From an uncultured Microthrixaceae bacterium (GTDB taxonomy: Bacteria > Actinomycetota > Acidimicrobiia > Acidimicrobiales > DATDAH01), in NCBI GenBank assembly GCA_964635055.1, contig CAZWMT010000015.1, positions 36,632 through 100,631 of the forward strand: 64,000 nt of DNA. Direction: 5' to 3'. The notes beneath the pieces are model-generated. The model was not told the origin of the DNA and made no database searches. It worked only from the letters and a program-made list of their open reading frames with translations. The position numbers and the translations under genes were made by a program. Shown in pieces: positions 15,776-42,782 of this stretch (position 1 is the first letter of the stretch; each line of letters opens with the position of its first letter).

Positions 15776-15843
15776 CCCGTGGCGAGGCGGCGCGAGCCCA
15801 CCTTCGGCGACGCTCGCCTCGAGGCCCGTCGCGGATTCCGCAC

Positions 15844-19450: not shown

Positions 19451-19461
19451 GAGGACACCCC

Positions 19462-25116: not shown

Positions 25117-25731
25117 CTACGTCGGCGCGAATGCCGCTACGAGCAGGTCGATCTCGGTCGAGATGACCTCGAGCAGGTCGGTGTTGGCGGGCTTGGCGAG
25201 CCACTGGAAGAGGGCCCGGCGGTAGGTCACGAGGGCCACGTTGGCGAGGAGGAGACAGGCCTCGTCGGGCTCCTTGAGCCCGCGACGGGAGGCGAAGGCC
25301 TCGGCCATGCGAACGATGTCGTCCTGCTGGCGGACGACCAGGCCTCCTCGCAGGGTGGGTGAGGAGGCGACGGCCTGCTCGTACTGCAAGAGCGCCTTGC
25401 GGATCTTCACCACCGGCGGAGCGAGCTCGAGCAGGGTGGCGCGGGCGGCCTCGATGTCGGAGAGCCCCTCAGGCTGGGCGAGGAAGTGCTCGGTGAAGGA
25501 CTGGAACCAGCCGTACTCGCCGACGAAGAGCACGGACTCCTTCGTGGGGAAGTAGCGGAAGAACGTCCGAGGCGAGACGCCGGCCTGCTCTGCGATCTCG
25601 TCGGTGGTCGTGGTGTCGTAGCCGTTCTTGGCGAAGAGCTCGAGGGCCGCCTGCTGGAGGGCCCGCTCGGTCCGCAGCTTGTGGGCCTGGCGGCGCGACG
25701 GCGGCGCCTCCGCGGTCACCTCGTTGGCCAT
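25117..25731 (-). CDS. TetR/AcrR family transcriptional regulator (candidate regulator of the palindrome regulon)
   Basis: The HTH LQQAALELFAKNGYDTTTTDEIAEQAGVSPRTFFRYFPTKE. Inner ATG (MANEVTAE...). Palindrome sites lie on both sides of the gene. Confidence 0.9.
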   Translation of the reverse strand: MANEVTAEAPPSRRQAHKLRTERALQQAALELFAKNGYDTTTTDEIAEQAGVSPRTFFRYFPTKESVLFVGEYGWFQSFTEHFLAQPEGLSDIEAARATLLELAPPVVKIRKALLQYEQAVASSPTLRGGLVVRQQDDIVRMAEAFASRRGLKEPDEACLLLANVALVTYRRALFQWLAKPANTDLLEVISTEIDLLVAAFAPT

Positions 25732-25825
25732 GTGCGCCGGACCCCCTCCGCTCGTTCGTTTGCTCTGCGAGCACCCTACTGGCAGTGGCGTGTCGCCTTG
25801 ACAGTCCTCAGGGCCACCCATAAAG

Positions 25826-25841
25826 TGACAGTCGAGTGTCA
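25826..25841. promoter_or_regulatory. Candidate operator (site 7), with a degenerate second site at 25780-25795
   Basis: TGACAGTCGAGTGTCA lies in the divergent gap between TetR (start 25731, minus strand) and the ParB-like gene (start 25855, plus strand). TGGCAGTGGCGTGTCG lies 31 nt upstream. Confidence 0.65.
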
Positions 25842-25854
25842 CTTAGGGGGACGA

Positions 25855-26853
25855 GTGTCGCAGGCTGAGGTTTGGGAGGGTGAGGTCACGACGCCGGACG
25901 GCGTTTCGTGGGTGCCCGTCGCCCGCCTTGGTGTCGGTTCGTCCTTCCGGCCGGGGGGTCTTTGCCCCGAGCACGTCGACCGTCTTGCCGCACTCGAAGG
26001 GGCATGGCCACCGGTCCTGCTCGCCCGTCGAGACGGGTCGGTGATCGACGGGGCGCATCGGGTGGCTGCGGCGGGCCGGCTCGGGATGGCCCGGATCGAG
26101 GCGGTGTGGTTCGACGGCAGCGCCGCCGACGCCTACGTCGAGTTCGTCCGGCGCAACGTCGCCCACGGCCTCACCCTCACCGTGCACGAGCGCAAGGCCG
26201 CCGCCGCCCGGGTCCTGCGCGACCACCCCCTCTGGTCGGACCGCCGGGTGGCGGAGGTGTGCGCCCTCTCGCCGAAGACGGTCGGGCGGGTTCGCAGCGA
26301 TGCCGCCTGCTGTCCAAATGAGGAAGATCCCCACTCGGACGAGCTCCGTGAGGGCCGAGACCACCGCCTGCGCCCCGTCCGTCCCGGCTCGGCGCGTGCG
26401 CGTGTGCTCGAGGCGTTGGAGGTGCAGCCTGATGCCTCCCTGCGCACGATCGCCGCGGCGGCCGGTGTGTCTCCCGAGACCGTGCGCCTGGTGCGCATGA
26501 ACCTGGCCGACGGGAAGCTGGCCGACGGGAAGCTGGCCGACGGGACGCTGGCCGACGAGGTCGCCGCGCCTGCCTCGGTCGAGCCCGTCGAACCGCTCCC
26601 GCCAGAGTCGCCTGGGCCGGCGGGGAACAGCGAGCCGTCCTGGCAGGTCGACGCCGCGCTGGCGTCCTTCCCCCACGGGGATGACTTCCTCGCCTGGTTC
26701 GAGCGGACCGCCCTCCATGGGTCGGACCTCTCCTGGGTGGACACCATCCCTCTCGGCCGGGTGTACCTCGTGGCCGACGAGGCCCGACGCCGCTCCGAGA
26801 CCTGGCTGCGTTTCGCGCGGGCGGTCGAAGCCCGCGCCGCCCGGGCCCGTTGA
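25855..26853 (+). CDS. ParB-like (ParB/Srx N-terminal domain) HTH protein, StrR-like architecture
   Basis: VLLARRDGSVIDGAHRVAAAGRLG (ParB N-domain DGxHR-type motif). Two HTH-like segments: RRVAEVCALSPKTVGRVR and LRTIAAAAGVSPETVRLVR. GTG start behind an AGGGGGA RBS. Confidence 0.7.
   Translation: MSQAEVWEGEVTTPDGVSWVPVARLGVGSSFRPGGLCPEHVDRLAALEGAWPPVLLARRDGSVIDGAHRVAAAGRLGMARIEAVWFDGSAADAYVEFVRRNVAHGLTLTVHERKAAAARVLRDHPLWSDRRVAEVCALSPKTVGRVRSDAACCPNEEDPHSDELREGRDHRLRPVRPGSARARVLEALEVQPDASLRTIAAAAGVSPETVRLVRMNLADGKLADGKLADGTLADEVAAPASVEPVEPLPPESPGPAGNSEPSWQVDAALASFPHGDDFLAWFERTALHGSDLSWVDTIPLGRVYLVADEARRRSETWLRFARAVEARAARAR
26503..26559 (+). repeat. 15-bp tandem repeat (about 3.8 copies) inside the ParB-like CDS
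   Basis: CTGGCCGACGGGAAG occurs twice, then CTGGCCGACGGGACG, then CTGGCCGACGAG. Together they encode LADGK LADGK LADGT LADE. Confidence 0.9.
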
Positions 26854-27051: not shown

Positions 27052-28437
27052 ATGCACACCGACCAGCCGACGGTCACTGAGGGGCGCATGGTCACGCGCG
27101 AGCTGGCCACGTGGGTGTCCGATCTGCAGCCCGAGGACGTCCCCGACGAGGTGCTCGAGGAAGCGGGCTCGGCGCTCGCCGACTTCCTTGGTGAATGCCT
27201 CTTCGTCGGCGGCACCAAGGCCTGGGGTCAGTCCATCGCCGCCTTCTGTGCGCAGAACGGCGGCGGCCAGCCCGAGGCGACCATCATCGCCACCGGCGAG
27301 CGCACCCTCGCCGCCCGGGCGGCGATGGCCAACGGCACCATGGCCCTGGGATTCGAGTTCGCCGACTTCGGCGCCGGCAGCCGTCCCTATCCCTTCGCGG
27401 TCACGGCCCCACTGGCCGTCGCCGAGTCCCACCACTGCTCGGGCCGCGACCTCGCCGTCGCCATCGTGATCGGGTACGAGGTGATGGGCCGGATCTTCCG
27501 GTCGACCTTCGAGAAGACCATCCCGTTCTACGTCCCCTCCGTCTACGGCACGCTCGGTGGCGCCGCCGGCTGCGCCTGGCTCCTCGCACTGTCCCCGCAG
27601 CACGCGACCTATGCCCTCGGCCTGGCCGCCGCCTTCACCGGCGGCACCTTCCAGGGGCACGAAGAAGGGGCGTGGCAGCGGTCGCTGAACGGGGGCATGG
27701 CGGGGGAGCGGGCCGTCACCGCCGCCTTGCTGGCGGAGACCGGCTTCGTGGCCACCGAACTCGGCCTCGAAGGCGTCCAAGGATTCGCCGCCAGCTACAC
27801 GAACGGACACCTCGATCCCAGTGCGCTCCTCGACGGGCTGGGCGAGTCGTGGATCATCACCGGCCGCTGGGTGAAGCGGTACCCCATGAACACGACGCTG
27901 CACGCCCCCGTCGATGCGCTGCTGGCTGTGATGGCCGAGCACGACCTCGACCACACCGACATCGAGGAGATCGACGCCGCCTGGCAGCGGGTCGAGCCGT
28001 TCCTCGCCAAGAAGCAGGTGTCGACCGTGGTCAGCGCCCAGGCCAGCCTGCCCTTCGCCCTGGCCGTCGCCGCCGTGCGCGGGAAGGTGGGCGTGGACGA
28101 GTTCACCGACGAGACCGTCGCCGACCCCACGGTCCAGGCGATGGTCGGCCGTACCGCCGTCCATCAGGACCTGGACCTCTACGCCAAGGTCACGAACTCC
28201 ATGCCGGGGCGGGTCACCGTGCGGACCACGGACGGCCGCGAGCTGACCCACGAGGTGCTGTACCCCAAGGGAAACCCCGCCAACCCGCTCACCGAGGACG
28301 AGTTCAAGGCCAAGTTCATGGACATGGCCGAGCGGGTCCTCGGCCACGGCCAGGCCGACGAGCTCTACGGCCACTCCCGAGACCTTCTCTCCGTCGGCGA
28401 CGTCGCCGACCTGACCCCCTTGTTCAGCCCGAGATGA
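27052..28437 (+). CDS. MmgE/PrpD family protein (paralog 1)
   Basis: 461 aa with an AGGAGGGG RBS. N-terminus LATWVSDLQPEDVPDEVLEEAGSALADFLG; C-terminus YPKGNPANPLTEDEFKAKF is typical of the PrpD family. Confidence 0.9.
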   Translation: MHTDQPTVTEGRMVTRELATWVSDLQPEDVPDEVLEEAGSALADFLGECLFVGGTKAWGQSIAAFCAQNGGGQPEATIIATGERTLAARAAMANGTMALGFEFADFGAGSRPYPFAVTAPLAVAESHHCSGRDLAVAIVIGYEVMGRIFRSTFEKTIPFYVPSVYGTLGGAAGCAWLLALSPQHATYALGLAAAFTGGTFQGHEEGAWQRSLNGGMAGERAVTAALLAETGFVATELGLEGVQGFAASYTNGHLDPSALLDGLGESWIITGRWVKRYPMNTTLHAPVDALLAVMAEHDLDHTDIEEIDAAWQRVEPFLAKKQVSTVVSAQASLPFALAVAAVRGKVGVDEFTDETVADPTVQAMVGRTAVHQDLDLYAKVTNSMPGRVTVRTTDGRELTHEVLYPKGNPANPLTEDEFKAKFMDMAERVLGHGQADELYGHSRDLLSVGDVADLTPLFSPR

Positions 28438-28478
28438 CCAACCGACGACGACCGGGTCCGAGTGGCCGCCGACCGACC

Positions 28479-28529
28479 GTTTCTGGCTCCCGATTCGATC
28501 GCCACCACGGTCGAATCGGGAGCCAGAAC
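28479..28529. repeat. Hairpin repeat family, copy 2 (intergenic)
   Basis: TTCTGGCTCCCGATTCGA (28481-98), loop TCGCCACCACGG, then TCGAATCGGGAGCCAGAA (28511-28). It lies 42 nt after the PrpD-1 stop and 48 nt before the LeuC-like start. Confidence 0.85.
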
Positions 28530-28576
28530 GACCGCCGTGGGCTCGGCCTCATCACGCAGGACGCAGGAGCCGCCGA

Positions 28577-29812
28577 ATGGGCATGAACGCCATCGAGAAG
28601 ATCCTGGCCAACCACTCCGAACAGGACACGGTCGCCCCCGGCGACGTGGTGATGGTCGACGTCGACGTCACCGTGCAGTTCGACTCCTCGCGAGCGGACA
28701 TCCTGAAGGTGGCGAAGCCCGACAAGCTCGTCCTGCTGCACGATCACGTCGTGCCGGCCCCCACGGTGATGGCGGCCAACCACGCGAAGAAGATGCGCGA
28801 GTTCGTCGAGCGCTTCGACATCGAGCACTACTTCCCGGTGGGCCAGCACGGCATCAGCCACGTGCTCGTCGCCGACCAGGGCTACGCCCTGCCGGGCCAG
28901 ATCCTCGTCAACGCCGACTCGCACACCTGCTCGTCGGGCGCGATGAACTGCCTCGCCCGCGGCATGGGCCCGTCCGAGATGCTCTACATCATCTGCAAGG
29001 GCCAGACCTGGTACCTGGTGGGCGAGACGACGAAGGTCGTGCTCGAAGGCGAACTGCCCGAGCGGGTCTACCCCCGTGACGTCATCCACTACATCCCGGG
29101 CCAGTACGGCGACTTCGCCGGCCGGAACCTCGAGTGGCACGGCGACGGCCTCTCCACCATCGGCATCGACGGGCGGCTGACGATGGCGACCATCTCCGCC
29201 GAGCTCTCCGCAGAGTTCTCGCTCTTCCCCTACGACGACGTCCTCGCCGAGCACCTCGAGGGCCGCAACCAGTGGGCCTTCGAGCCCGCGCACCCCGACG
29301 ACGACGCGACCTACGACACCACCATCACGGTGAACCTGTCCGAGCTCGAGCCCCAGGTGGTCCTCCCCAACAAGGTCGCCTGGAACTCCAAGCCCGCCCG
29401 GGAGGTCGCGGCCGACGGCATCAAGGTCGACCAGGCCTTCATCGGGTCGTGCGCAAACGGTCGCCTCAGCGACTTCGCCATCGCCGCCGAGATCATGGAG
29501 GGCCGCCAGGTCACACCCGGCACCCGCATGATCGTGACGCCCGGTAGCCAGGACATCCTGGGCAAGGCCATCAAGGCCGGTTACGTGTCGACCCTGATGG
29601 ACGCCGGCGCGGTCGTCACCAGCTCCACCTGCGGCGCCTGCTACGGCGGCCACATGGGCCTGCTGGCCGACGGCGAGGTGTGCATCACGGCCTCGACCCG
29701 CAACTTCCAGGGGCGGATGGGTAGCCCCAAGGCGAGCGTCTACATGGGCTCGCCCGCCACCGTGGCCGCCTCCGCCATCACCGGCGTGATCACCGATCCG
29801 AGGGACCTCTGA
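28577..29812 (+). CDS. Aconitase-fold dehydratase large subunit (LeuC/HacA-like)
   Basis: 411 aa. MNAIEKILANHS..., DSHTCSSGAMN, and a GSCANGRLSDF...CGACYGGHMG cluster-ligand region. Confidence 0.9.
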   Translation: MGMNAIEKILANHSEQDTVAPGDVVMVDVDVTVQFDSSRADILKVAKPDKLVLLHDHVVPAPTVMAANHAKKMREFVERFDIEHYFPVGQHGISHVLVADQGYALPGQILVNADSHTCSSGAMNCLARGMGPSEMLYIICKGQTWYLVGETTKVVLEGELPERVYPRDVIHYIPGQYGDFAGRNLEWHGDGLSTIGIDGRLTMATISAELSAEFSLFPYDDVLAEHLEGRNQWAFEPAHPDDDATYDTTITVNLSELEPQVVLPNKVAWNSKPAREVAADGIKVDQAFIGSCANGRLSDFAIAAEIMEGRQVTPGTRMIVTPGSQDILGKAIKAGYVSTLMDAGAVVTSSTCGACYGGHMGLLADGEVCITASTRNFQGRMGSPKASVYMGSPATVAASAITGVITDPRDL

Positions 29813-30360
29813 TGGCGGCCGCTGGTAGGACGTTCACCGGGAAGGTGTGGATCTTCGGCGACGACATCAACACCGACCTCGTCATCCCCAACTTCGCCGT
29901 GCTCTTCCCCCTCGAGGAACAGCTCGAGCACTGCTTCTCGGCCAACCGGCCCGGGTGGGTGGACGAGGTGCAGGCCGGCGACGTGCTCGTCGTGGGCCGG
30001 AACTTCGGGGTCGGCTCGGCCCGCAACATCGGGGCGGTCTTCGAGGCGCTCGGCATCGCCGGCGTCGTCGCCGAGTCGTTCAACGGTCTGGGCCTGCGCA
30101 ACTGCATCAACGCCGGCCTGCCCTCACTGCAATGCGCCGGCGTGACCGAGCTCTTCGCCGAGGGCGATGTGGCCGACGTCGACTGGACCACCGGCGTCGT
30201 GCGCAACACCACCACCGGCGCCACCGGACAGGGCGCCCCCATCCCGCCGCAGCTCCAAGACATCATCCTCGGCGGCGGCGTCGAGGGGGTGCTCCGCACC
30301 GAGGGCTACCTCGCCCCGCTGCCCGAGGTGGCCGTCACCGTCCCGGGCCGATCCGCATGA
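29812..30360 (+). CDS. Aconitase-fold dehydratase small subunit (LeuD/HacB-like)
   Basis: GKVWIFGDDINTDLVIP...GRNFGVGSARNIGA. The start overlaps the large-subunit stop. Confidence 0.85.
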   Translation: MAAAGRTFTGKVWIFGDDINTDLVIPNFAVLFPLEEQLEHCFSANRPGWVDEVQAGDVLVVGRNFGVGSARNIGAVFEALGIAGVVAESFNGLGLRNCINAGLPSLQCAGVTELFAEGDVADVDWTTGVVRNTTTGATGQGAPIPPQLQDIILGGGVEGVLRTEGYLAPLPEVAVTVPGRSA

Positions 30361-31739
30361 GCAGCTCATCCGCCGGCGCCGGCGGCCAGCGTTCCGTCAC
30401 CGAGCAGATCGCCGCCTGGGTCGTCGACGTCGACGGCGCCGACGTTCCGACCCTCGGCATCGAGCGGGTGCGCAACCTCGTGCTCGACTCGCTCGGCAAC
30501 CAGTTCGCGGGCATGGCCGTGTCCACCGGACGGCTGCTCAGTGAGTGGGTCCGGGCCCAAGGCGGCACGCCGACGTGCACCCTCACCGCCCAGGACTTCA
30601 AGACGACGCCGGCCTACGCCACGCTCGTCAACGGCGCCGCCTCGCACTCCCTCGAGAACGACGACATCGCCACCTTCTCCAGCCACCCGAACAGCCCCCT
30701 CACGGCGGCGTCGCTCGCGCTGGGAGAGAAGCTCGGCGCCTCCGGCCACGACGTCGCGGTCGCCTGGATGATCGGGTGGGAGGTCACCGCCCAGACCATG
30801 AAGGTGTGCCTCGGTCCCCGGGGCAACGAGCTCATCAACCGGGGGTGGTTCAACCAGGGCTTCCAGGAGACCCTCGGCGTCGCCGCCCTGGCCGCCCGTC
30901 TCCTCGGGCTCGACCTCGACCAGACCCGCATGGCGCTGGGCCACGCCGCCTCGGCCATGGGCGGGCTGATGAAGAACCGGGGCACCGACACCAAGGGGTT
31001 CACCGCGGGCAGTGCGGCCATGCACGGCGTCGTGGCCGCCGAACTGGCCGCCGCCGGCTTCACCGCCGACCGCGACATCCTCGACGGAGAGATCGGCGTT
31101 GCTCGGCTGCTCGGCCTCGAGCAGGGCGACCCCCAGCGCATGCTCGACGGGCTGGGGTCGTGGGACCTCGTCACCCGCGGCTCGACCATCCGGCTCTTCG
31201 CCTGCTGCGGCGCTTCGCACTGGAGCATGGACGCCCTGCAGCGGATCGTGCGGGACCAGCCGATCGACCCAGAGGACGTCGAGTCCATCGAGGTCGAGAT
31301 CCCCGAGTTCCTCACCGACATGGTGCCCATCCACGAGCCCGTCACCGGCCTCCAGGGGAAGTACAGCCTCGAGTACTGCCTCGCCACCATCGCCCTCGAC
31401 GGTCGGGCCGGGGTGTCGCAGTACACCGACGACGCCGTGCGGCGGCCGGAGGCCCAGGCGCTGATGGAGCGGGTCACCACAGTCCCCATGACCGACGGCG
31501 CGTACCAGAGCCGGGTGGTGCTGACCCTGCGCAACGGCGAGCAGCACGAGGTGACGAGCAACCGCTCCCACGGCAACCCCGCCGACCCCCTCACCCAGGA
31601 GGAGATCGTGGCCAAGTTCGACGAGTGCGCCGCTTCGGCGCCGGCCGCCCAGCGCGCCCGGGTGGTCGACCTGTGCAGCCGCCTCGAGGCCCTCGCCGAT
31701 GTCGGGGAGCTGGCCGAGGCCATCGGGGCGGTGCGCTGA
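30357..31739 (+). CDS. MmgE/PrpD family protein (paralog 2)
   Basis: ATGA overlap with the LeuD-like gene. IAAWVVDVDGADVPTLGIERVRNLVLDSLG; HGNPADPLTQEEIVAKF. Confidence 0.9.
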   Translation: MSSSSAGAGGQRSVTEQIAAWVVDVDGADVPTLGIERVRNLVLDSLGNQFAGMAVSTGRLLSEWVRAQGGTPTCTLTAQDFKTTPAYATLVNGAASHSLENDDIATFSSHPNSPLTAASLALGEKLGASGHDVAVAWMIGWEVTAQTMKVCLGPRGNELINRGWFNQGFQETLGVAALAARLLGLDLDQTRMALGHAASAMGGLMKNRGTDTKGFTAGSAAMHGVVAAELAAAGFTADRDILDGEIGVARLLGLEQGDPQRMLDGLGSWDLVTRGSTIRLFACCGASHWSMDALQRIVRDQPIDPEDVESIEVEIPEFLTDMVPIHEPVTGLQGKYSLEYCLATIALDGRAGVSQYTDDAVRRPEAQALMERVTTVPMTDGAYQSRVVLTLRNGEQHEVTSNRSHGNPADPLTQEEIVAKFDECAASAPAAQRARVVDLCSRLEALADVGELAEAIGAVR

Positions 31740-33403
31740 TGGCGTACGACCTGGTCATCCGTGGCGGTCGCATCGTCGACGGCACGGGGGCGCCGGCCTA
31801 CGACGGTGACGTCGCCATCGCCGGCGGGAAGATCGCCGCGCTGGGCGACACCGGCGATGCCGCGGCCGCCCGCACCATCGACGCCGCCGCCCACGTCGTG
31901 GCGCCCGGGTTCATCGACGCCCACACCCACTACGACGCCCAGCTCCTCTGGGACCCCTCCGCCAACCCGTCGACCGCCCACGGCATCACCACCGTCCTGC
32001 TGGGCAACTGCGGCTACACGCTGGCGCCGGTCCGGGCCGCCGACCAGGACTACCTGATGGGGCTCTTCGCCGCCGCCGAGGAGATCCCCAAGAGGGCGCT
32101 GCAGCAGTTCGCCCCGTTCGGGTGGGAGACCTTCGGCGAGTTCCTCGACTCGATGGCGGGCCGGGTGGGGATCAACGTCCTGACCCAGGTCGGTCACAGC
32201 GCCGTGCGCCGCTTCGTCATGGGTGACGCCGCCCTCGAGCGGGCCGCCACCGACGACGAGATCGCCGAGATGGTCGCCATCGTCGAGGCGGCGATGGACG
32301 CCGGCGCGGCCGGCATCAGCAGCAGCCAGGCGCCCCACCAACGCGGGGAGCTGGGCGAGCACATCCCCTCGTTCTTCGCCGAGCGGCCCGAGGTGGACGC
32401 CCTCGCGGAGGCGGTGCGCCGCAAGGGCAAGCGCCTGCTCTCGATCAACCCCGCCTCGAAGCGCAGCGGCATCACCGCGGAGGACCAGGCGCTCCTGGCC
32501 GACCTGGCCGAGCGCTCCGGCGCGGTCGTGTCGTGGAACGACTTCGGCATGGGCACACCAGACGGCGACGCGATGCTCGAGTTCATGGAGGCCGAGCTCG
32601 AGCGCGGCCACGAGATCTACGCCGTCGCCCGCTGCCAGCGCCCCGAGACCCGCTTCACCCTCAAGAAGCTGTCGGCGGTGTTCGCCACCTCCGAGCCGTG
32701 GGTCGACCTGTCCCGCATGGATCCGGACGAGAAGCTCGCCGCCCTCGCCGACCCCGAGTGGCGGGACCGTCTCGGCGAGTTCTGGGGCACGGCCAAGTTC
32801 ATGGTCAATGCCTCGGTCGAGAAGGGCGCCACCGCCGAGACCCAGGCGCTCGAGGGTCGCCTGCTCGTCGACATCGCCGAGGAGCGGGGCGTGACCCCCT
32901 CCGAGGTGATGTTCGACACCGCCATCGCCGACGGGCTCGAGACCTACTTCCGAATCGCCGGCCCGGTCGACATGGACGAGTCCCGGCTGGAGCGCATCCT
33001 CAAGAGTCCGGCCACCCTCGTGGGCATCTCCGACGGCGGCGCCCACCTCCAGACCTTCGCCGGCGGCGACTACACCTCCTACTTCCTGGCCCACTGGGTG
33101 CGAGAGAAGCGCGCCTTCACGCTGGAAGAGGGTGTGGCCGCGCTGAGCTCGCGCGTCGCCGAGTTCCTCGGGCTCACGGACCGGGGCACGCTCGAGGTCG
33201 GCCAGGCCGCCGACGTGGTGGTCTTCGACCCCGACACCGTCGAGCCCCTCGCCCTCCAGACGCTGGACGACATCCCCGGCGGCGGCACCCGCATGACCAA
33301 GAACGCCCGGGGCATCCCGTGGGTGCTGGTCAACGGCGAGCCCGTGGTCGAGTCCGGCGAGGCCACCGCCGCCGTCCCCGGCACGGTCCTCGGTCGGGAC
33401 TGA
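31739..33403 (+). CDS. N-acyl-D-amino-acid deacylase (D-aminoacylase) family amidohydrolase
   Basis: YDLVIRGGRIVDGTGAPAYDGDVAIAGGKIAALG...APGFIDAHTHYD. The start overlaps the PrpD-2 stop. Confidence 0.85.
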   Translation: MAYDLVIRGGRIVDGTGAPAYDGDVAIAGGKIAALGDTGDAAAARTIDAAAHVVAPGFIDAHTHYDAQLLWDPSANPSTAHGITTVLLGNCGYTLAPVRAADQDYLMGLFAAAEEIPKRALQQFAPFGWETFGEFLDSMAGRVGINVLTQVGHSAVRRFVMGDAALERAATDDEIAEMVAIVEAAMDAGAAGISSSQAPHQRGELGEHIPSFFAERPEVDALAEAVRRKGKRLLSINPASKRSGITAEDQALLADLAERSGAVVSWNDFGMGTPDGDAMLEFMEAELERGHEIYAVARCQRPETRFTLKKLSAVFATSEPWVDLSRMDPDEKLAALADPEWRDRLGEFWGTAKFMVNASVEKGATAETQALEGRLLVDIAEERGVTPSEVMFDTAIADGLETYFRIAGPVDMDESRLERILKSPATLVGISDGGAHLQTFAGGDYTSYFLAHWVREKRAFTLEEGVAALSSRVAEFLGLTDRGTLEVGQAADVVVFDPDTVEPLALQTLDDIPGGGTRMTKNARGIPWVLVNGEPVVESGEATAAVPGTVLGRD

Positions 33404-33437: not shown

Positions 33438-33487
33438 GTTCTGGCTCCCGTTTCGATCGCCCGAGCGGTCGAAACGGGAGCCAGAAC
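33438..33487. repeat. Hairpin repeat family, copy 3 (intergenic)
   Basis: GTTCTGGCTCCCGTTTCGA, loop TCGCCCGAGCGG, then TCGAAACGGGAGCCAGAAC. Relative to copy 2, an A-T pair in the stem is swapped to T-A on both arms. Confidence 0.85.
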
Positions 33488-33504: not shown

Positions 33505-35148
33505 ATGGCGCGGACGCTGCCGGTCCTGCGGGACTGGAACCGCTCCTTCTGGACCTCGGGGGAGGACGGGCGCCTTCGCTTCCAGAGCTGCGAGCAGTGC
33601 GACCGCCTCCAGCACCCGCCGGCGCCGGTGTGCCGGTCGTGCGGCGGCGACGACCTCGCCCCACGGGCGGTGTCGGGCCGGGCGGTCGTGCAGGGGCACA
33701 CCACGAACCTGCAGCCGTGGTCAGCAGACCAGCGCGACCCCTACGTCGTCGCGGTGGTCGCCATCGAGGAGGACCCCCGCGTCCGGCTCACCACGAACCT
33801 GGTGCACTGCGCGCCCGAGGCGGTCGAGGTGGGCCTGCCCGTCCGCGTCGTGTTCGACCACGTCGAGGACGTCTGGGTGCCCGACTTCGAGCCGAGCGGC
33901 GAGCCGGTCGAGCCGCTGGTGGACGACGAGCGGGAGATCGAGCGCATCCGCTCGGTCCGGCCGATGGTCGGCACCGACAACTTCGAGGACCGGGTGGCGC
34001 TCACGGGCATCGGGCGCTCCGAGATCGGGCGGAAGCTCATGCGGGCGCCGCTGTCCCTCACGGTCGACGCTGTCCGAGCCGCGGTCGCCGACGCCGGCCT
34101 GACCATGGACGACATCGACGGCCTGTCCACCTACCCCGGCACGCCGGCCGAGGGTGGCTACGCCGAGGGCGGCGTCGGCGCGCTCGAGGCCGTGCTCGGC
34201 ATCCGCCCGACCTGGCACAACGGTGGCCAGGAGGTGCCGGGCGCGACCGGTTCGCTCATCGCCGCCATGCTGGCGGTGGCCAGTGGCCTGTGCCGCCACG
34301 TGGTCTGCTTCCGCACCGTGTGGCAGTCGAGCTTCGGCGCGCTCGCCAAGCGGGGCGAGGTGGCCGGCGCCGGACCGCAGCGGGCGTCGGGGATGACCGA
34401 GTACCAGGCGCCGTTCGGGGCGCAGGCGGTCCACGCCGTCGCGATGGCGGCGTCGCAGCACATGGCCCGGTACGGCACCACCCGCGAGACCCTCGGCTGG
34501 ATCGCCCTCAACGCCCGCGCCAACGCCGCCCTCGACCCGACCGCGCTCTACCGCGACCTGCTGACCATGGACCAGTACCTCGACGCCCGGCCCATCTCGA
34601 CGCCGTTCGGTCTGTTCGACTGCGACGCCCTCTGCGACGGCGCCGTGGCCGTGGTCGTGTCGGCCGTCGACGCCGCCGCCGACGCGCCGCACCCCGTCTA
34701 CGTCGAGGCCACGGGCTCTCAGATCACCGAGCGGATGGAGTGGGACCAGGGCGTGCTCAGCCACGAGCCCCACGTCCTCGGCCCCGCCGCCCACGTCTGG
34801 ACCCGTACCACGCTGCGTCCCGAGGACATCACCGTGGCCGAGCTCTTCGACGGCTTCAGCTTCAACTGCCTGTCCTGGATCGAGGCCCTCGGCTTCTGCG
34901 AGGTGGGCGAGGCGAAGGAGTTCCTCGACGGCGGCAAGAACATCGCCCTCGACGGCCTGCTCCCGGTCAACACCCACGGCGGGCAGCTCTCGCACGGCCG
35001 CACCCACGGCATGGGCCTCGTCCACGAGGCCGTCACCCAGCTGCGGGGCGCCGGCGGCGACCGCCAGGTCGCCGACGCCACCACCGCCATCGTCACCAGC
35101 GGCGGCCTCACCCCCGGCAGCGTCCTGCTCCTCAGGAGGGACCCATGA
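33505..35148 (+). CDS. Fusion protein: DUF35 OB-fold/Zn-ribbon (N-terminal) + SCP-x/Ltp-type thiolase (C-terminal)
   Basis: N-terminus CEQCDRLQHPPAPVCRSCGG. C-terminus NTHGGQLSHGRTHGMGLVHEAVTQLRGAGG. The upstream part of listed ORF 32533.. is the wrong frame of the aminoacylase gene. Confidence 0.85.
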   Translation: MARTLPVLRDWNRSFWTSGEDGRLRFQSCEQCDRLQHPPAPVCRSCGGDDLAPRAVSGRAVVQGHTTNLQPWSADQRDPYVVAVVAIEEDPRVRLTTNLVHCAPEAVEVGLPVRVVFDHVEDVWVPDFEPSGEPVEPLVDDEREIERIRSVRPMVGTDNFEDRVALTGIGRSEIGRKLMRAPLSLTVDAVRAAVADAGLTMDDIDGLSTYPGTPAEGGYAEGGVGALEAVLGIRPTWHNGGQEVPGATGSLIAAMLAVASGLCRHVVCFRTVWQSSFGALAKRGEVAGAGPQRASGMTEYQAPFGAQAVHAVAMAASQHMARYGTTRETLGWIALNARANAALDPTALYRDLLTMDQYLDARPISTPFGLFDCDALCDGAVAVVVSAVDAAADAPHPVYVEATGSQITERMEWDQGVLSHEPHVLGPAAHVWTRTTLRPEDITVAELFDGFSFNCLSWIEALGFCEVGEAKEFLDGGKNIALDGLLPVNTHGGQLSHGRTHGMGLVHEAVTQLRGAGGDRQVADATTAIVTSGGLTPGSVLLLRRDP

Positions 35149-36416
35149 ACCTCGACGACATGATCATCCTCAGCATCGACGACCACGTCGTCGAGCCGCC
35201 GGACCTCTTCGACGGCCACCTGCCCGCCGCCTACCGCGACCGGGCGCCGCGCCTGGTGCGTGACGCCGACGGCAAGGAGCACTGGGAGTTCGAGGGCAAG
35301 GAGTTCGGCATCTTCGGGCTCAACGCCACCGTCTCGTGGCCCAAGGAGGAGTGGGGCCTCAACCCCAGCGCGCTGGCCGAGATGCGCCCTGCCGCCTACC
35401 TGGTGGACCAGCGCATCGACGACATGAACCGCAACGGGGTGCTGGCGTCGATGTGCTTCCCGAGCCTGCCCGGCTTCAGCGGGCGCCGCTTCCAGGAGGC
35501 CGACGACAAGGACCTCGCCCTCGTGATGCTCAAGGCCTACAACGACTGGAGCATCGACGAGTGGTGCGCCTCGCACCCAGGCCGCTTCATGCCCCTTGCG
35601 ATCGGACCCGCCTGGGACATGGACGAGATGGTGGCCGAGCTCAAGCGGGTGTCGGCCAAGGGCTGCCGGGCGGTCAGCATGCCCGAGCTGCCCCACATCC
35701 AGGGCCTGCCCAGCTACCAGAGCGACTACTGGGATCCCTTCTTCCGGGCGGTGTGCGACGAGGGGATGGTGATGTGCCTGCACATCGGCATGGGGCTCGA
35801 CGCCATCGACATGGGCCCCGACTTCTCCATGGACAACTTCATGGTGCTCGCCACCCAGGTCACGGTGCTGGCGGTGCAGGATCTGCTGTGGGGGCCGGCC
35901 ATGCGCGCCTACCCCGAGCTGAGGATCGCCTTCTCCGAGGGTGGCATCGGCTGGATGCCGTTCCTGATGGACCGGGTCGATCGCCACTACGAGAACCAGA
36001 AGTGGACCGGCCAGGACTTCGGCGGGAAGCTGCCGAGCGAGGTGTTCCGCGAGCACAGCCTGGCCTGCTTCATCTCCGACCCGACCTCGCTGAAGCTCTA
36101 CGCCGACATCGGGATCGACAACATCGCCTTCGAGACCGACTACCCCCACTCGGACTCGCTGTGGCCCGACGCGCCCGAGGTGCTGCTCGAGCAGTGCAAC
36201 GGCGCTGGCCTGTCCGACGAGGACATCGACAAGATCAGCTGGAAGAACGCAGCCCGGTTCTGCGACCACGACCCGTTCGCGGTGATCCCGCGCGAGCAGG
36301 CCACGGTGGGCGCGCTCCGTGCCCAGGCGACCGACGTCGACACGTCGACGGTCTCGCGGGCCGAGTGGCGGGCCCGCTACGAGGCCGACCCGACCTACGA
36401 GGTGGCGCCGGCATGA
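35145..36416 (+). CDS. Amidohydrolase-2 family protein (paralog 2)
   Basis: ATGA overlap. MIILSIDDHVVEPPDLF...; FETDYPHSDSLWP. Confidence 0.85.
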   Translation: MNLDDMIILSIDDHVVEPPDLFDGHLPAAYRDRAPRLVRDADGKEHWEFEGKEFGIFGLNATVSWPKEEWGLNPSALAEMRPAAYLVDQRIDDMNRNGVLASMCFPSLPGFSGRRFQEADDKDLALVMLKAYNDWSIDEWCASHPGRFMPLAIGPAWDMDEMVAELKRVSAKGCRAVSMPELPHIQGLPSYQSDYWDPFFRAVCDEGMVMCLHIGMGLDAIDMGPDFSMDNFMVLATQVTVLAVQDLLWGPAMRAYPELRIAFSEGGIGWMPFLMDRVDRHYENQKWTGQDFGGKLPSEVFREHSLACFISDPTSLKLYADIGIDNIAFETDYPHSDSLWPDAPEVLLEQCNGAGLSDEDIDKISWKNAARFCDHDPFAVIPREQATVGALRAQATDVDTSTVSRAEWRARYEADPTYEVAPA

Positions 36417-36447: not shown

Positions 36448-37230
36448 ATGAGCTACACCATCGACCTCGAGGGCCGGCGGGCGCTGATCACGGGCGCCGG
36501 CCAGGGCATCGGACTGACCATCGCCCACGCGCTGGCCGAGGCGGGCGCCTCCCTCGTGATCAACGACGTGCGGGCCGAGCAGGCCGACGCGGCCGTGGCG
36601 GAGCTTCAGGCCGCCGGCGCCGACGCCGTCGCACTGCCCTTCGACGTCACCGACTGGGACGACGTGTCGTCGGCCGTCGCGGGGTGCGGCGAAGTCGACA
36701 TCCTGGTCAACAACGCTGGCAACGCCGGGACCGAGGGCTACGGCAACATCGCCGACTTCGTCGACTCCGATCCCTCGGACTGGCAGCCCTTCTTCGCCGT
36801 CAACCTCTTCGGCGTCATGCACTGCACGAAGGCGGCGCTGCCGTCGATGATCGACGGTGGGTGGGGGCGGGTGATCACGATCGTCTCGGACGCCGCCCGC
36901 TTCGGGAACGCCAAGCTGGCGCCCTACGCGGCCGCCAAGGCCGGCGCCGCGGGCTTCTCCCGCTCGATCGCCCGCGAGGTCGGCCGTCACGGGATCACGG
37001 TGAACTGCGTCAGCCTCGGGAACATCCTCACGCCGAACATGCCGGCGCCCGACGTCGAGTCCGAAGCGGGCCAGGCGCGGGAGAAGGCGTTCCTCAAGCC
37101 CTACGTGGTCCGCCGCCGGGGGAGCCCGGACGACGTCGCCCCGATGGTGGCCTACCTGGCCAGCCCGTACGCCGACTGGATCACCGGCCAGACCTATGGC
37201 GTCGACGGTGGCTACGTCTTCGGCCTCTGA
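36448..37230 (+). CDS. SDR family oxidoreductase
   Basis: RRALITGAGQGIGLTIA; NNAGNAG; YAAAKAGAAG. Confidence 0.9.
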   Translation: MSYTIDLEGRRALITGAGQGIGLTIAHALAEAGASLVINDVRAEQADAAVAELQAAGADAVALPFDVTDWDDVSSAVAGCGEVDILVNNAGNAGTEGYGNIADFVDSDPSDWQPFFAVNLFGVMHCTKAALPSMIDGGWGRVITIVSDAARFGNAKLAPYAAAKAGAAGFSRSIAREVGRHGITVNCVSLGNILTPNMPAPDVESEAGQAREKAFLKPYVVRRRGSPDDVAPMVAYLASPYADWITGQTYGVDGGYVFGL

Positions 37231-37234
37231 GCCC

Positions 37235-38134
37235 GTGGCCGGTCGATCGCCGGCCACTGGCGCGCCGGCCGCCGAGGGCCCGGTCGAGACCGTCGGCTTC
37301 ATCGGTCTCGGGCACATGGGCGGGGCGATGGCGCAGCGGCTCGTCGACGCCGGCTGGGCGACGGTGCTCTGGGCCCGTCGTCCTGAGGTCCTCGACGCCT
37401 TCTCCGCTGCGAACGTCGAGGTCGCCGCCACCCCCGCCGCCCTGGCCGCCGCCGCCGACCTGGTCGGTGTGTGCGTGTGGGCCGACGACGACGTGCGCGA
37501 GGTGGTCGCCGGCGAGGACGGCCTCCTCGCCGGCAGCCGACCCGGCACCGTGATCGTCATCCACTCGACGGTGGAGCCAGCGACCTGTCGTGCGCTGGCC
37601 GCGCTCGCCGCGGCCCGCGGCGTCGCCCTGCTGGACGCCCCGGTCAGCGGTGGTCGTGACGTCGCCCTCGAGGGCAAGCTCACCGTGGCCGTCGGCGGCG
37701 ACCTGCAGACGCTTCAGCGCTGCCGGCCGGTGCTGGCCGCCTTCGCCGACACGGTCGTCGCCCTCGGCGACGTCGGCGCCGGCCAGGTGGCCAAGCTGCT
37801 CAACAACGCGCTGCTCGCCGCCAACCTCACCGTCGCCGACGACGCACTCACGCTCGGCGAGGCGCTCGGCCTCGACCCCGTGGCGCTGGCGCCGTTCCTC
37901 GCCGACGGATCGGGCCGCAGCTATGGCCTCGGGGTGGCGGCGCGGGCGCGCACCACGCCCGCGACCCGCCAGGCCGCACGGCCGGCGCTCGACAAGGACC
38001 TGTCCCGCCTACGGGCCGCGATGGCACCGGACGGGGCCGACGCCGGCGCCGCCGTCGACGACCCCACGCCGCTCCTCCGCGACGCCGCCGAGGCCATCCG
38101 TCGGCTCGGCGACCCACCGCCGGGATGGGCCTGA
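37235..38134 (+). CDS. NAD(P)-dependent 3-hydroxyisobutyrate/6-phosphogluconate dehydrogenase-family oxidoreductase
   Basis: VGFIGLGHMGGAMAQRLVDAG. Start uncertain: GTG 37235 is chosen, and ATG 37196 would overlap the SDR gene by 35 nt. Confidence 0.8.
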   Translation: MAGRSPATGAPAAEGPVETVGFIGLGHMGGAMAQRLVDAGWATVLWARRPEVLDAFSAANVEVAATPAALAAAADLVGVCVWADDDVREVVAGEDGLLAGSRPGTVIVIHSTVEPATCRALAALAAARGVALLDAPVSGGRDVALEGKLTVAVGGDLQTLQRCRPVLAAFADTVVALGDVGAGQVAKLLNNALLAANLTVADDALTLGEALGLDPVALAPFLADGSGRSYGLGVAARARTTPATRQAARPALDKDLSRLRAAMAPDGADAGAAVDDPTPLLRDAAEAIRRLGDPPPGWA

Positions 38135-38222: not shown

Positions 38223-39485
38223 ATGAGCCCCACCCCGATCGACTTCCCGATCTACGACGCCGACAACCACATGTACGAGACGCGAGAGGCCTTCACCAAG
38301 CACCTGCCGCCCGAGTACGCCGGCGTCATCAAGTACGTGGAGGTGAACGGCCGCACCAAGATCGCGGTCAAGAACGTCATCTCCGACTACATCCCGAACC
38401 CCACCTTCGAGGTGGTCGCCCGGCCCGGCGCGCAGCAGGACTACTTCATGCAGGGCAACCCGGAGGGGAAGTCACCGCGGGAGATCTTCGGCGAGCCGAT
38501 GCGGGCCGAGGAGGCCTTCTTCTCGCCGGGGCCGCGCCTCGAGCGGATGGACGAGCTCGGCATCGACCGGTCGATCATGTGGCCCACGCTGGCGAGCCTG
38601 CTGGAGGAGCGCCTGAGCGACGATCCGAAGGCGACCCACGTCGTCATCCACGCCCTCAACCAGTGGATGCACGAGCAGTGGACCTTCGACTACGAGGACC
38701 GGATCTTCGCCACGCCGGTCATCACCCTCCCCATCGTCGACCGGGCCATCGAGGAACTCGAGTGGGTGGTCGAGCGGGGCGCCAAGATCGTGTTGATCCG
38801 CCCGGCGCCGGTCCCCGGCTTCGAAGGCACCCGCTCGTTCGCGTTGCCCGAGTTCGACCCCTTCTGGGAGAAGGTCGTCGAGGCGGGCATCGCCGTCGGC
38901 ATGCACGCGTCGGACGACGGGGCCACGAAGTACCTCAACGTCTGGGAGGGCTCGGGCGGCGGCGAGTACCTGCCCTTCAAGGGCCAGAACGCGTTCGAGC
39001 AGGTCTTCCGCAGCTACCACCGCGGCATCCAGGACGCCATGCAGTCGGCCATCTGCCACGGCCTGTTCACGCGGTTCCCGTCGCTACGGGTCCTGCCCGT
39101 CGAGAACGGCTCGCGCTGGGTCGGCCCGCTCCTCGACGCCCTCGCCCACACGTACGAGCGGCACCCGAAGTCGTTCGACGAGGATCCCCTCGCCGTGTTC
39201 CGCCGCAACGTCTGGGTGCACCCGTTCCACGAGGACGACCCGCTGGACATCGTCCGGCTGATCGGCGCCGACCGGGTGCTGTTCGGCTCGGACTACCCGC
39301 ACCCGGAGGGGCTCGCCCAGCCGACCAGCTACGTCGACCGCCTGGCCGGCCTGTCCCACGACGACATCGCCGAGGTGGGACGCTCGCCGGCTCAACGCAG
39401 GTGGGGGAGCACCTCGTCGGCGAAGTGGCGCAGGTCGTCGATGCCGTCGATCGCCACTTGGAGGGTGTGGACGCCGAGGTCCTGA
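38223..39485 (+). CDS. Amidohydrolase-2 family protein (paralog 3), with an aberrant C-terminus
   Basis: IDFPIYDADNHMYE...; FGSDYPHPEGL. The last approximately 30 aa (GRSPAQRRWGSTSSAKWRRSS...) are low-complexity and antisense to the next gene. Confidence 0.8.
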   Translation: MSPTPIDFPIYDADNHMYETREAFTKHLPPEYAGVIKYVEVNGRTKIAVKNVISDYIPNPTFEVVARPGAQQDYFMQGNPEGKSPREIFGEPMRAEEAFFSPGPRLERMDELGIDRSIMWPTLASLLEERLSDDPKATHVVIHALNQWMHEQWTFDYEDRIFATPVITLPIVDRAIEELEWVVERGAKIVLIRPAPVPGFEGTRSFALPEFDPFWEKVVEAGIAVGMHASDDGATKYLNVWEGSGGGEYLPFKGQNAFEQVFRSYHRGIQDAMQSAICHGLFTRFPSLRVLPVENGSRWVGPLLDALAHTYERHPKSFDEDPLAVFRRNVWVHPFHEDDPLDIVRLIGADRVLFGSDYPHPEGLAQPTSYVDRLAGLSHDDIAEVGRSPAQRRWGSTSSAKWRRSSMPSIATWRVWTPRS

Positions 39486-42718: not shown

Positions 42719-42763
42719 CGACGAGCACGCTACGGCACCGGATCGCTGGCCGCGCGGCCAAAG

Positions 42764-42779
42764 TGGCAGTAGACTGTCA
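42764..42779. promoter_or_regulatory. Candidate operator (site 8)
   Basis: TGGCAGTAGACTGTCA contains TAGACT (TANNNT) and ends 3 nt before the Rieske ATG (42783). It lies in the divergent gap with the DUF2889 gene. Confidence 0.6.
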
Positions 42780-42782
42780 CTT

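Follow-up and report, generated by a model that had tools for sequence, protein, structure and literature searches.

A PrpD–LeuC–LeuD–PrpD gene cassette within a longer, apparently TetR-linked operon of an uncultured Microthrixaceae bacterium

Which reactions could be encoded by an operon that combines two proteins of the MmgE/PrpD family with a two-subunit LeuC/LeuD-type hydro-lyase and a D-aminoacylase-type hydrolase? This question is raised by a 64,000-nucleotide stretch of DNA from an uncultured Microthrixaceae bacterium (contig CAZWMT010000015.1; the whole analysed stretch is referred to as the window hereafter), in which such genes succeed one another at positions 27052–33403. An initial annotation regarded them as a five-gene module that belongs to no known pathway and suggested that it serves the dehydration/rehydration and deamidation of an unusual polycarboxylate. 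We examined the gene structure, the active sites and the conservation of this locus. The protein folds are all known. What is new is the fixed cassette of four genes (PrpD-1, LeuC, LeuD and PrpD-2), the LeuCD-type enzyme with a distinct loop, and the linkage to amidohydrolase-related dinuclear oxygenases (AROs); new as well, as judged from the aligned sequences, are two MmgE/PrpD subfamilies that break the residue hexad of their family.

The window has a G+C content of about 71%, so that raw lists of open reading frames (ORFs) are dominated by spurious frames. Genes were called from frame plots of the G+C content at third codon positions (GC3) and from codon usage. Five successive plus-strand genes were found in 27052–33403, and their family assignments, as first proposed, were borne out by Pfam and NCBIfam (Table 1). 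The translational coupling proposed for the last four of them was also found, with TGATG at 29812 (1-nt overlap), ATGA at 30357 (4 nt) and TGATG at 31739 (1 nt). LeuD has an alternative start, GTG at 29845 (its orthologs have 167–169 residues), with which the first overlap would become a gap of 32 nt.

A one-genome-per-species scan gave 32 related loci, against which the window proteins were then searched. Nearly all of these loci belong to metagenome-assembled genomes (MAGs) of Acidimicrobiia, to which Mycobacterium sp. BK086 is added. The order PrpD-1, LeuC, LeuD, PrpD-2 is kept in 26 of the 32 loci, three of the 26 carrying frameshifts typical of long-read assemblies; as for the other six, one is cut by a contig end, one has no PrpD-1, and four contain lone PrpD-2-like paralogs. 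This recurrence shows that the arrangement is more than chance. The predicted spacers in the related loci are short, mostly 0–60 nt, and PrpD-1 lies directly 5′ of LeuC in every case.

The limits of the module were found to differ from those first drawn. The amidohydrolase gene comes next in most of the loci, and in many it is followed by the genes of the fusion of DUF35 and thiolase-fold domains, of Amh2_b (an ARO-type protein), of a short-chain dehydrogenase (SDR) and of a 3-hydroxyisobutyrate-dehydrogenase-type (HIBADH-like) protein. The block of nine genes is complete in three cultured isolates of Mycobacterium/Mycolicibacterium, with identities of 58–74%; carriers of the operon include Mycolicibacterium sp. 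BK556 (GCA_014195195.1 or GCA_014195025.1) and Mycobacterium sp. BK086 (GCA_004362315.1). Thus, the downstream genes are conserved together with the quartet, and a restriction of the module to five genes does not hold. The fusion and Amh2_b genes overlap by ATGA, and the HIBADH-like gene starts within the SDR gene here as in the orthologous loci (−47 to −50 nt). Across the 15.5 kb from 25 to 40.5 kb, scanning gave a single sigma-70-like promoter match, situated in the divergent spacer between the TetR gene and the operon, and nothing resembling an intrinsic terminator. A TetR gene with 43–68% identity occurs on the opposite strand upstream of PrpD-1 in about 17 loci and abuts the cassette in about 13. 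The five genes are the front, promoter-proximal half of a longer, apparently TetR-linked operon of about 10–12 genes, which begins at about 26.0 kb and extends to at least 38134 and probably to 39485.

The two PrpD paralogs, which share 31% identity, both contain the Pfam domains PF03972 and PF19305 (112–159 bits against a cut-off of 32.1; E = 1e-32 to 1e-47). The characterised MmgE/PrpD enzymes all act on a C4-1,4-dicarboxylate backbone via an enolate, by protonation or deprotonation at C2 (Gonner et al., PMC12290011). In the numbering of iminodisuccinate (IDS) epimerase, the hexad of the family consists of H85, D/E88, H99, H150, K198 and K266, and the epimerases carry Tyr145 in addition (PMC12290011). 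The corresponding positions were mapped through HMMER alignments, and PrpD-1 was aligned to its best solved relative, B. subtilis 'IRG1', and to human cis-aconitate decarboxylase (CAD). PrpD-2, which has IDS epimerase as its best solved relative (PDB 2HP0, E = 5e-41) and also matches CAD, keeps four of the six residues (H97, E100, H110, F165, K213, R279). PrpD-1 keeps two (L98, E102, Y112, Y160, R209, K274): neither canonical histidine is retained, the proposed general acid/base being one of the two, and Tyr112 replaces His99 of the epimerase (His103 of CAD). The two-base signature of the epimerases (His99 and Tyr145) is found in neither paralog; PrpD-2 keeps the histidine and has Glu158, which is not invariant, in place of Tyr145, and the histidine is Tyr112 in PrpD-1. 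The CAD/IRG1 signature (His103, His159, Lys207, Lys272, Thr97 and Tyr318 of human CAD) is also absent from both. The changes are H159 to F165, K272 to R279, T97 to I104 and Y318 to T320 in PrpD-2, and H103 to Y112 and H159 to Y160 in PrpD-1. With the NCBIfam equivalog model of 2-methylcitrate dehydratase (PrpD), which has a cut-off of 950 bits, PrpD-1 reaches 22.8, and PrpD-2 has no NCBIfam match.

These substitutions are invariant across 23–27 orthologs of PrpD-1 and PrpD-2; the hexad residues of PrpD-2 are invariant across 11 homologs, and the motifs NGTMALGFE, RPYPFA, FYVP, QGHEEG and RW.K.YPMN..LHA of PrpD-1 across 23 orthologs. This invariance indicates that both proteins are under purifying selection and that their active sites have been remodelled, not decayed; that PrpD-1 is a decaying pseudogene is ruled out by its motifs. 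Among 1.84 billion representative proteins, PrpD-1 forms an isolated clade: a cluster at 72% identity is followed by another at 48%, which also carries the RPY motif, and the remaining best representatives are at 39% or less. A wider uncharacterised clade of its relatives shows a graded loss of the same hexad positions. PrpD-1 may alternatively be a non-catalytic scaffold or substrate-binding partner of PrpD-2 or of the LeuCD-type enzyme, with one PrpD-type reaction only in the cassette. The missing histidines and the constant position directly upstream of LeuC agree with such a role, and it is compatible with both of the substrate classes weighed below. However, the invariant residues at the former active site include potential catalytic groups, and their graded replacement in the wider clade suggests a retuned rather than a dead site. 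We consider a non-catalytic role for PrpD-1 rather doubtful.

The second component of the cassette, the [4Fe-4S] hydro-lyase, has intact cluster motifs. LeuC scores 266 bits with the Pfam Aconitase model, 432.6 with the PRK00402 LeuC/HacA subfamily model (cut-off 385) and 394.3 with hacA_fam (cut-off 385.7), and it matches an isopropylmalate/citramalate isomerase (PDB 4KP1) with E = 5e-81. Its DSH, GSCANGR and CGAC motifs, which contain the three cluster cysteines, are invariant in 23 sequences. LeuD matches the LeuD/DmdB small-subunit model TIGR02087 with 116 bits (cut-off 109). The equivalog models of specific enzymes are all missed, that is, those of isopropylmalate isomerase (LEU2, 381 against 610; leud, 103.7 against 245.85) and of homoaconitase (HacA_Meth, 315.7 against 550; HacB models, 80–97 against 229–230). 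When LeuD was aligned to 3VBA, 1V7L and 2PKP, a distinct loop was found: NFAVLF here and NFAVL[FM] or G[FY]A[LI][FYL][ML] in the orthologs, compared with YLVY in isopropylmalate isomerase and YLRT in homoaconitase. This is a position that we take to be the determinant of substrate specificity in the small-subunit enzymes of M. jannaschii. The loop is hydrophobic and has no arginine, and hence no Arg/Thr pair of the homoaconitase type, which argues for an alkyl-substituted malate or maleate over a tricarboxylate; judged from its residues, it points to an alkyl-substituted dicarboxylate as the substrate.

Does the cassette complete a known pathway whose other genes lie nearby? Among the approximately 50 genes of the window, no citrate-synthase-like, isocitrate-lyase/phosphoenolpyruvate-mutase, HMGL-like or isopropylmalate-dehydrogenase-like protein was found, and such partners of the PrpC, PrpB, LeuA or LeuB type were equally absent from the Pfam-annotated neighbourhoods of the orthologous loci. 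A methylcitrate or leucine pathway is ruled out by the absence of partner genes from the window and by the failing equivalog scores, and the view of the initial annotation that the module represents neither of them, nor any other known pathway, stands within the limits of the window. A variant of the methylcitrate, propionate, itaconate or methylsuccinate routes, or of leucine-type elongation of 2-oxoacids, might still operate with partners encoded elsewhere in the genome. The pairing of a PrpD with an aconitase-fold enzyme follows the logic of the methylcitrate cycle, and the upstream operon at 14432–20691, which encodes an enoyl-CoA hydratase, an acyl-CoA dehydrogenase, an acyl-CoA ligase and a family-III CoA-transferase (CoA, coenzyme A), resembles the Ict/Mcd/Msi methylsuccinate cluster (PMC12290011). 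Nevertheless, the window and the annotated neighbourhoods contain no partner of the synthase, lyase or dehydrogenase kind, both paralogs fail the PrpD equivalog model and deviate from the hexad common to PrpD, CAD, IDS epimerase and Msi, and LeuC and LeuD stay below the LeuC/LeuD/HacA equivalog cut-offs. Such a variant is very improbable.

The gene that follows PrpD-2 directs attention to another class of substrates. The amidohydrolase matches the Pfam family Amidohydro_3 with 105.8 bits (cut-off 29.7), and its best solved relatives are D-aminoacylase (1M7J/1V4Y, E = 2e-43) and N-acyl-D-glutamate deacylase. H61 and H63 (HxH), C91 (GNCG) and D432 (SDGGAH) are conserved in 18 orthologs. Its N- and C-terminal parts align to D-aminoacylase, but the central ~170 residues do not, and the score with the NCBIfam subfamily of N-acyl-D-amino-acid deacylases (101 bits) is below the cut-off of 340. 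On this basis, the catabolism of N-substituted or N-acylated amino-dicarboxylates, such as iminodisuccinate-like aminopolycarboxylates or N-acyl-D-aspartate and N-acyl-D-glutamate, is the main rival to the alkyl-dicarboxylate model developed below. PrpD-2 would epimerise the α-carbon in the manner of IDS epimerase, the D-aminoacylase-type enzyme would then free the D-isomer of its N-substituent, and LeuCD would hydrate or dehydrate the resulting unsaturated or hydroxy dicarboxylate. The relationship of PrpD-2 to IDS epimerase, the intact metal ligands of the amidohydrolase, and the coupling of the two genes here together with their adjacency in about 19 related loci all favour this route. However, PrpD-2 has neither the second epimerase base nor the equivalent of His150 (Phe165 instead), genes for a C-N lyase, an aminotransferase or an amino-acid transporter are not conserved along with the cassette, and those that are encode oxygenases, CoA-transferases and a thiolase-fold enzyme. 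Moreover, loci L022–24, L028, L034 and L037 have no adjacent amidohydrolase but only a paralog of 34–38% identity on the opposite strand. We regard this route as unlikely.

The downstream genes gave a different picture. Amh2_b matches DitZ (PDB 8UYR) over its full length (E = 9e-136) with 46.8% identity to RrDitZ by BLASTP; its next solved match is PtmU3. The substrates of PtmU3 are CoA thioesters derived from diterpenoids. DitZ is a diiron ARO that hydroxylates dehydroabietic acid, and PtmU3 is a diiron monooxygenase of platensimycin/platencin biosynthesis (PMC13154177). The AROs are marked by an N-terminal D-x-H motif and a C-terminal D-x-P-H-x-D/E motif, which are absent from hydrolases and decarboxylases of the same fold (PMC13154177). 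Both motifs were found in all three Amidohydro_2 proteins of the window: DTH and DYPHFE in Amh2_a, DDH and DYPHSD in Amh2_b, and DNH and DYPHPE in Amh2_c. According to these motifs, the three proteins are probably not hydrolases but distinct C-H hydroxylases with a diiron or Mn/Fe centre, and their presence reframes the island as one for the oxidative catabolism of a hindered carboxylate. Around the quartet, ARO and family-III CoA-transferase genes occur in several differing arrangements, and in the mycobacterial loci an 841-aa double family-III CoA-transferase gene and another Amidohydro_2 gene precede the block.

The contents of the rest of the window are rich in oxygenases and CoA enzymes. 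Besides acyl-CoA dehydrogenases, an enoyl-CoA hydratase, an acyl-CoA ligase and three family-III CoA-transferases (two of them double-length), its annotation lists three TauD-type dioxygenases, two luciferase-like monooxygenases, a P450, a Rieske ferredoxin, SnoaL-like proteins, many SDRs, thiolase-fold and DUF35 proteins, and LivJ-type ATP-binding cassette (ABC) transporters. AROs are reportedly associated with Rieske ferredoxins (PMC13154177). A Rieske [2Fe-2S] ferredoxin-like gene (42459–43100) is followed by a sucrase/ferredoxin-like (Suc_Fer-like) gene, the two spanning 42459–44002, and by analogy this pair may be the electron-transfer partner of the AROs. As for the DUF35-thiolase fusion, its sites were set by eye, from motif position and from alignment to the other thiolase-fold protein of the window. 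The nucleophile site so placed appears to be PGATGS, which contains no cysteine, and the Ltp2/Sal site appears to read [FY]DGF; the catalytic motif of the Ltp2/Sal aldolases is Y-D-(H/C) (PMC12329534).

Based on these results, we tentatively propose, with slightly less than even confidence, that the locus is a catabolic operon, probably TetR-controlled, whose core interconverts isomers of an alkyl-substituted C4-dicarboxylate and whose other genes oxidise a hindered carboxylate. PrpD-1, LeuC, LeuD and PrpD-2 would interconvert the isomers of a substituted malate, maleate or succinate: the LeuCD-type enzyme would carry out a stereospecific hydration or dehydration, and the MmgE/PrpD proteins would perform C2 enolate chemistry (dehydration, epimerisation or decarboxylation) on the stereoisomer not accepted by the Fe-S enzyme. 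For the metallohydrolase of the D-aminoacylase type, the task would be to open an amide of this acid or a similar carbonyl derivative of it. The DUF35-thiolase fusion, the DitZ-like oxygenase, the SDR and the β-hydroxyacid dehydrogenase would serve the oxidation and C-C cleavage of a bulky, possibly terpenoid-like carboxylate or CoA ester. In the oxidation of the hindered carboxylate, they might be joined by the nearby family-III CoA-transferases, acyl-CoA dehydrogenase and enoyl-CoA hydratase, and the oxidative genes might either supply or consume the branched dicarboxylate. The route may be a bulkier analogue of the methylsuccinate/itaconate routes, in which an MmgE/PrpD enzyme is combined with a family-III CoA-transferase and an acyl-CoA dehydrogenase. 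We infer these steps and the substrate; the gene content, order, spacing, motifs and remodelled PrpD sites on which they draw are observed. The dehydration and deamidation of a polycarboxylate, as first suggested, is one possibility, but the oxygenase- and CoA-enzyme-rich context and the LeuD loop lead towards an alkyl-dicarboxylate instead.

A terpenoid origin of the substrate is put forward as a hypothesis. One reported metabolite of dehydroabietic acid degradation is 2-isopropylmalic acid (PMC6891630), and the lower pathway of resin acids is described as unresolved (PMC13063091); these two points together make a resin-acid-type substrate attractive. With an RrDitZ sequence rebuilt from the PDB alignment, loci of close RrDitZ relatives were found in Rhodococcus zopfii (91% identity) and Nocardia (84%). 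Both contain TetR, SDR and DitZ genes, and the R. zopfii locus also contains those of a ferredoxin, a flavin adenine dinucleotide (FAD) oxidoreductase, an enoyl-CoA hydratase and an acyl-CoA ligase. The pairing of DitZ with an SDR is the sole feature common to these loci and the present operon. In the plasmid collection, the Massilia locus with the best Amh2_b match is a CoA/β-oxidation cluster without a PrpD gene, and PrpD and LeuCD are not mentioned in the papers on Ambrox, spruce bark and P. abietaniphila.

Several points weigh against the proposal of a hindered alkyl-dicarboxylate. It is not obvious what a D-aminoacylase-type enzyme would do in an alkyl-dicarboxylate route; PrpD-1 could be non-catalytic in view of its two lost family histidines, and a very stable hairpin between PrpD-1 and LeuC could attenuate read-through in this strain. 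The diterpenoid link is weak, Amh2_b being just 47% identical to DitZ. No PrpD or LeuCD genes are present at the R. zopfii and Nocardia DitZ loci, and a direct link to validated DitZ loci was accordingly not confirmed. Finally, no aromatic ring-hydroxylating or extradiol dioxygenase, and none of the DitA or DitC type, is among the annotated genes of the window, which speaks against a classical dit pathway here.

The hairpin just mentioned belongs to a family of palindromic repeats that the initial annotation described as flanking the module. Two perfect copies are indeed present, one on each side of the stretch from LeuC to the amidohydrolase, with RNA folding z-scores of −4.9 and −7.2, and seven matches to the repeat arm were counted against 0.17 expected. 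They do not, however, define the module. The palindromes were found only in Logan contigs of the same strain (L001–L006) and are absent from 39 other loci, and the spacer between PrpD-1 and LeuC, 139 nt long here, measures only about 16–66 nt (typically 22–27) in the orthologous loci. These repeats are thus lineage-specific insertions and not parts of the module. A role as module boundaries or conserved regulators is ruled out by this restriction to one strain, by the lack of a U-tract and by the negative terminator scan. The degenerate copy at 18292–18339 is in frame with the acyl-CoA ligase gene and is translated as ..GSGSRFDRPGVQIGSQNG.. in a surface-loop region; in the ortholog of locus L007, the loop is shorter and unrelated. 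This copy looks as if a mobile palindrome had inserted itself in frame into the coding sequence, and in this it recalls the Rickettsia palindromic elements.

Table 1. Features of the operon and related elements in the window (positions count from the first letter of the 64,000-nucleotide stretch)
Feature	Position	Strand	Basis and remarks
Amh2_a, Amidohydro_2 protein with ARO motifs	14432–15775		23–27% mutual identity with Amh2_b and Amh2_c
Palindromic repeat, degenerate third copy	18292–18339		Inside acyl-CoA ligase (AMP-binding) coding sequence 17864–19450
TetR-family regulator	25117–25842	−	Pfam TetR_N + TetR_C_14; divergent from operon; start 25842 or 25731
Sigma-70-like promoter match TTGACA-17-TAAAGT	25798–25826	+	Consensus match only; within TetR/operon divergent spacer
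270-aa protein, ParB-like 'DGAHR' N-terminus, weak helix-turn-helix (HTH)	26041–26853	+	HTH_AsnC match below cut-off
PrpD-1, 461 aa	27052–28437	+	Pfam MmgE_PrpD_N + MmgE_PrpD_C
Palindromic repeat copy 2	28481–28528		Perfect ~48-nt palindrome, PrpD-1/LeuC spacer
LeuC/HacA-type large subunit of [4Fe-4S] hydro-lyase, 411 aa	28577–29812	+	NCBIfam PRK00402
LeuD/DmdB-type small subunit, 182 aa	29812–30360	+	TIGR02087
PrpD-2, 460 aa, IDS-epimerase/CAD-like branch	30357–31739	+	Pfam; PDB 2HP0
D-aminoacylase-family (Amidohydro_3) metallohydrolase, 554 aa	31739–33403	+	Pfam; PDB 1M7J/1V4Y
Palindromic repeat copy 3	33439–33486		Perfect ~48-nt palindrome, 3′ of amidohydrolase
DUF35 (Zn-ribbon + OB)/thiolase-fold fusion	33505–35148	+	Pfam zf-ChsH2, OB_ChsH2_C, Thiolase_C_1
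Amh2_b, DitZ-like ARO	35145–36416	+	PDB 8UYR DitZ; ARO motifs
SDR	36448–37230	+	Pfam adh_short
3-Hydroxyisobutyrate-dehydrogenase-type β-hydroxyacid dehydrogenase (HIBADH-like)	37196–38134	+	Pfam NAD_binding_2, NAD_binding_11
Amh2_c, second ARO-type protein (Amidohydro_2), probably last operon gene	38223–39485	+	Pfam; motif DYPHPE

Some further observations were made on these features and their surroundings. The 270-aa protein at the head of the operon, which is also called as a gene on the Logan contigs, is peripheral to the module and conserved only occasionally: four related loci have a homolog of 54–66% identity on the same strand, and a fifth has one of 39% on the opposite strand. At the other end, the gene calls place the 3′ ends of the Amh2_c gene and of the convergent luciferase-like monooxygenase gene (39392–40264, minus strand) in an overlap of about 94 nt; the last ~60 residues of the Amh2_c ORF look like low-complexity sequence, and its true stop or frame may differ. 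Where the fused thiolase-fold protein reads FDGF, most orthologs have YDGF, and its catalytic residues appear to match neither thiolases nor Ltp2/Sal. A second thiolase-fold/DUF35 system, a split pair at 27–1199 and 1196–1642, also appears to have no nucleophile cysteine and carries YDCF like the Sal/SLP aldolases. The double-length family-III CoA-transferases, with two CoA_transf_3 domains and 738–825 residues, are encoded at 4135–6612 (minus strand) and 10346–12562 (plus strand), with a further region of this kind in locus L043 (positions 1–600). The mycobacterial loci and L008 have a similar enzyme of 841–844 residues, encoded directly before the cassette. An integrase-core (rve_3) gene at 55885–56694 (minus strand) marks an insertion-sequence-like element. 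The AT skew falls sharply, to −0.22 and −0.29, at 50–52 kb and 62–64 kb, where fused ABC permease/ATPase genes are located.

As for the distribution of the individual proteins, exact matches of LeuC were found on metagenome contigs only, and PrpD-2 and Amh2_b are also on record from an NCBI assembly, where they lie on a contig of about 120 kb. Homologs of PrpD-2 at 68–86% identity are numerous, and the few with an organism name come from MAGs of Acidimicrobiia/Acidimicrobiales. The plasmid collection contained PrpD-1 relatives at 33% identity or less only. In a Microthrixaceae MAG (L007/L013, 11371–16858), the stretch from the amidohydrolase through the fusion to the ARO gene is split into short ORFs, which probably reflects long-read frameshifts and not a real gene loss. 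A MAG labelled 'Proteobacteria bacterium' (GCA_021325025.1; L016/L008) carries a cassette 66–76% identical to the Acidimicrobiia versions, and this is either a mis-binned contig or a recent transfer.

About one prokaryotic species in five has MmgE/PrpD proteins, and only five activities are known, the newest from 2025 (PMC12290011). Two subfamilies that break the hexad and are locked to a LeuCD-type hydro-lyase provide a testable handle on new chemistry in two well-studied folds. The islands in which the cassette sits, rich in oxygenases and CoA enzymes, belong to soil Acidimicrobiia, which are abundant and have very few cultured members; its presence in three cultured isolates of Mycobacterium/Mycolicibacterium makes genetics and biochemistry feasible. 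If the substrate is a fragment of a terpenoid or other alicyclic acid, the cassette would fill a gap in the mineralisation of recalcitrant plant and soil carboxylates. A bolder idea, which we consider speculative and improbable, is that it constitutes an unrecognised enzyme system for moving or removing groups on hindered, alkyl-branched dicarboxylates derived from terpenoid-type alicyclic acids such as resin acids. PrpD-1 would then be the first histidine-free MmgE/PrpD enzyme, using Tyr or Glu bases, perhaps in a complex with LeuCD or PrpD-2.

No description of a PrpD-LeuC-LeuD-PrpD cassette was found in the searchable literature, and the locus is best understood by comparison with the known systems that share its parts. 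The closest in logic is the methylcitrate cycle, where PrpD and AcnB/AcnA likewise combine an MmgE/PrpD-fold enzyme with an aconitase-fold [4Fe-4S] hydro-lyase, the one implied to dehydrate and the other to rehydrate stereospecifically. In contrast to that cycle, the cassette has no PrpC or PrpB, its Fe-S enzyme is of the two-subunit LeuCD/HacAB type and not AcnA, AcnB or AcnD, and it contains two PrpD paralogs, both below the PrpD model and altered in their catalytic residues. The Msi cluster of Pseudomonas and Cupriavidus similarly uses an MmgE/PrpD enzyme on substituted succinates, together with a family-III CoA-transferase and an acyl-CoA dehydrogenase (PMC12290011), and IDS epimerase is the solved enzyme nearest to PrpD-2. 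By comparison with these two enzymes, His150 is replaced by Phe and Lys266 by Arg in PrpD-2, where Tyr145 has no equivalent, and PrpD-1 is without both histidines. Ich and Ccl are absent here, and the LeuCD-type enzyme and the amidohydrolase are absent from the Msi cluster.

The hydro-lyase itself shares its two-subunit architecture, cluster ligands and NCBIfam subfamily with LeuCD/HacAB (PDB 4KP1, 3VBA and 2PKP) and DmdAB. It differs from LeuCD/HacAB in its scores below the equivalog cut-offs, in the loop NFAVLF instead of YLVY or YLRT, in the lack of LeuA/LeuB or HacA-pathway partners, and in its catabolic context. With D-aminoacylase and N-acyl-D-glutamate deacylase (1M7J, 3GIP), the amidohydrolase shares the Pfam family and the HxH, Cys and Asp motifs, but its central ~170 residues are unrelated to D-aminoacylase, its score is below the subfamily cut-off, and no genes of amino-acid metabolism lie nearby. 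In the case of DitZ, Amh2_b differs by its identity of only 46.8%, and the closest RrDitZ relatives examined (84–91% identity) are unlinked to PrpD or LeuCD. Nevertheless, Amh2_b resembles DitZ and PtmU3 in the full-length DitZ match and in the D-x-H and D-x-P-H-x-D/E motifs, and an SDR gene accompanies DitZ in both genera: it precedes DitZ in Nocardia, and in R. zopfii it follows DitZ just as the SDR gene follows Amh2_b in the present operon.

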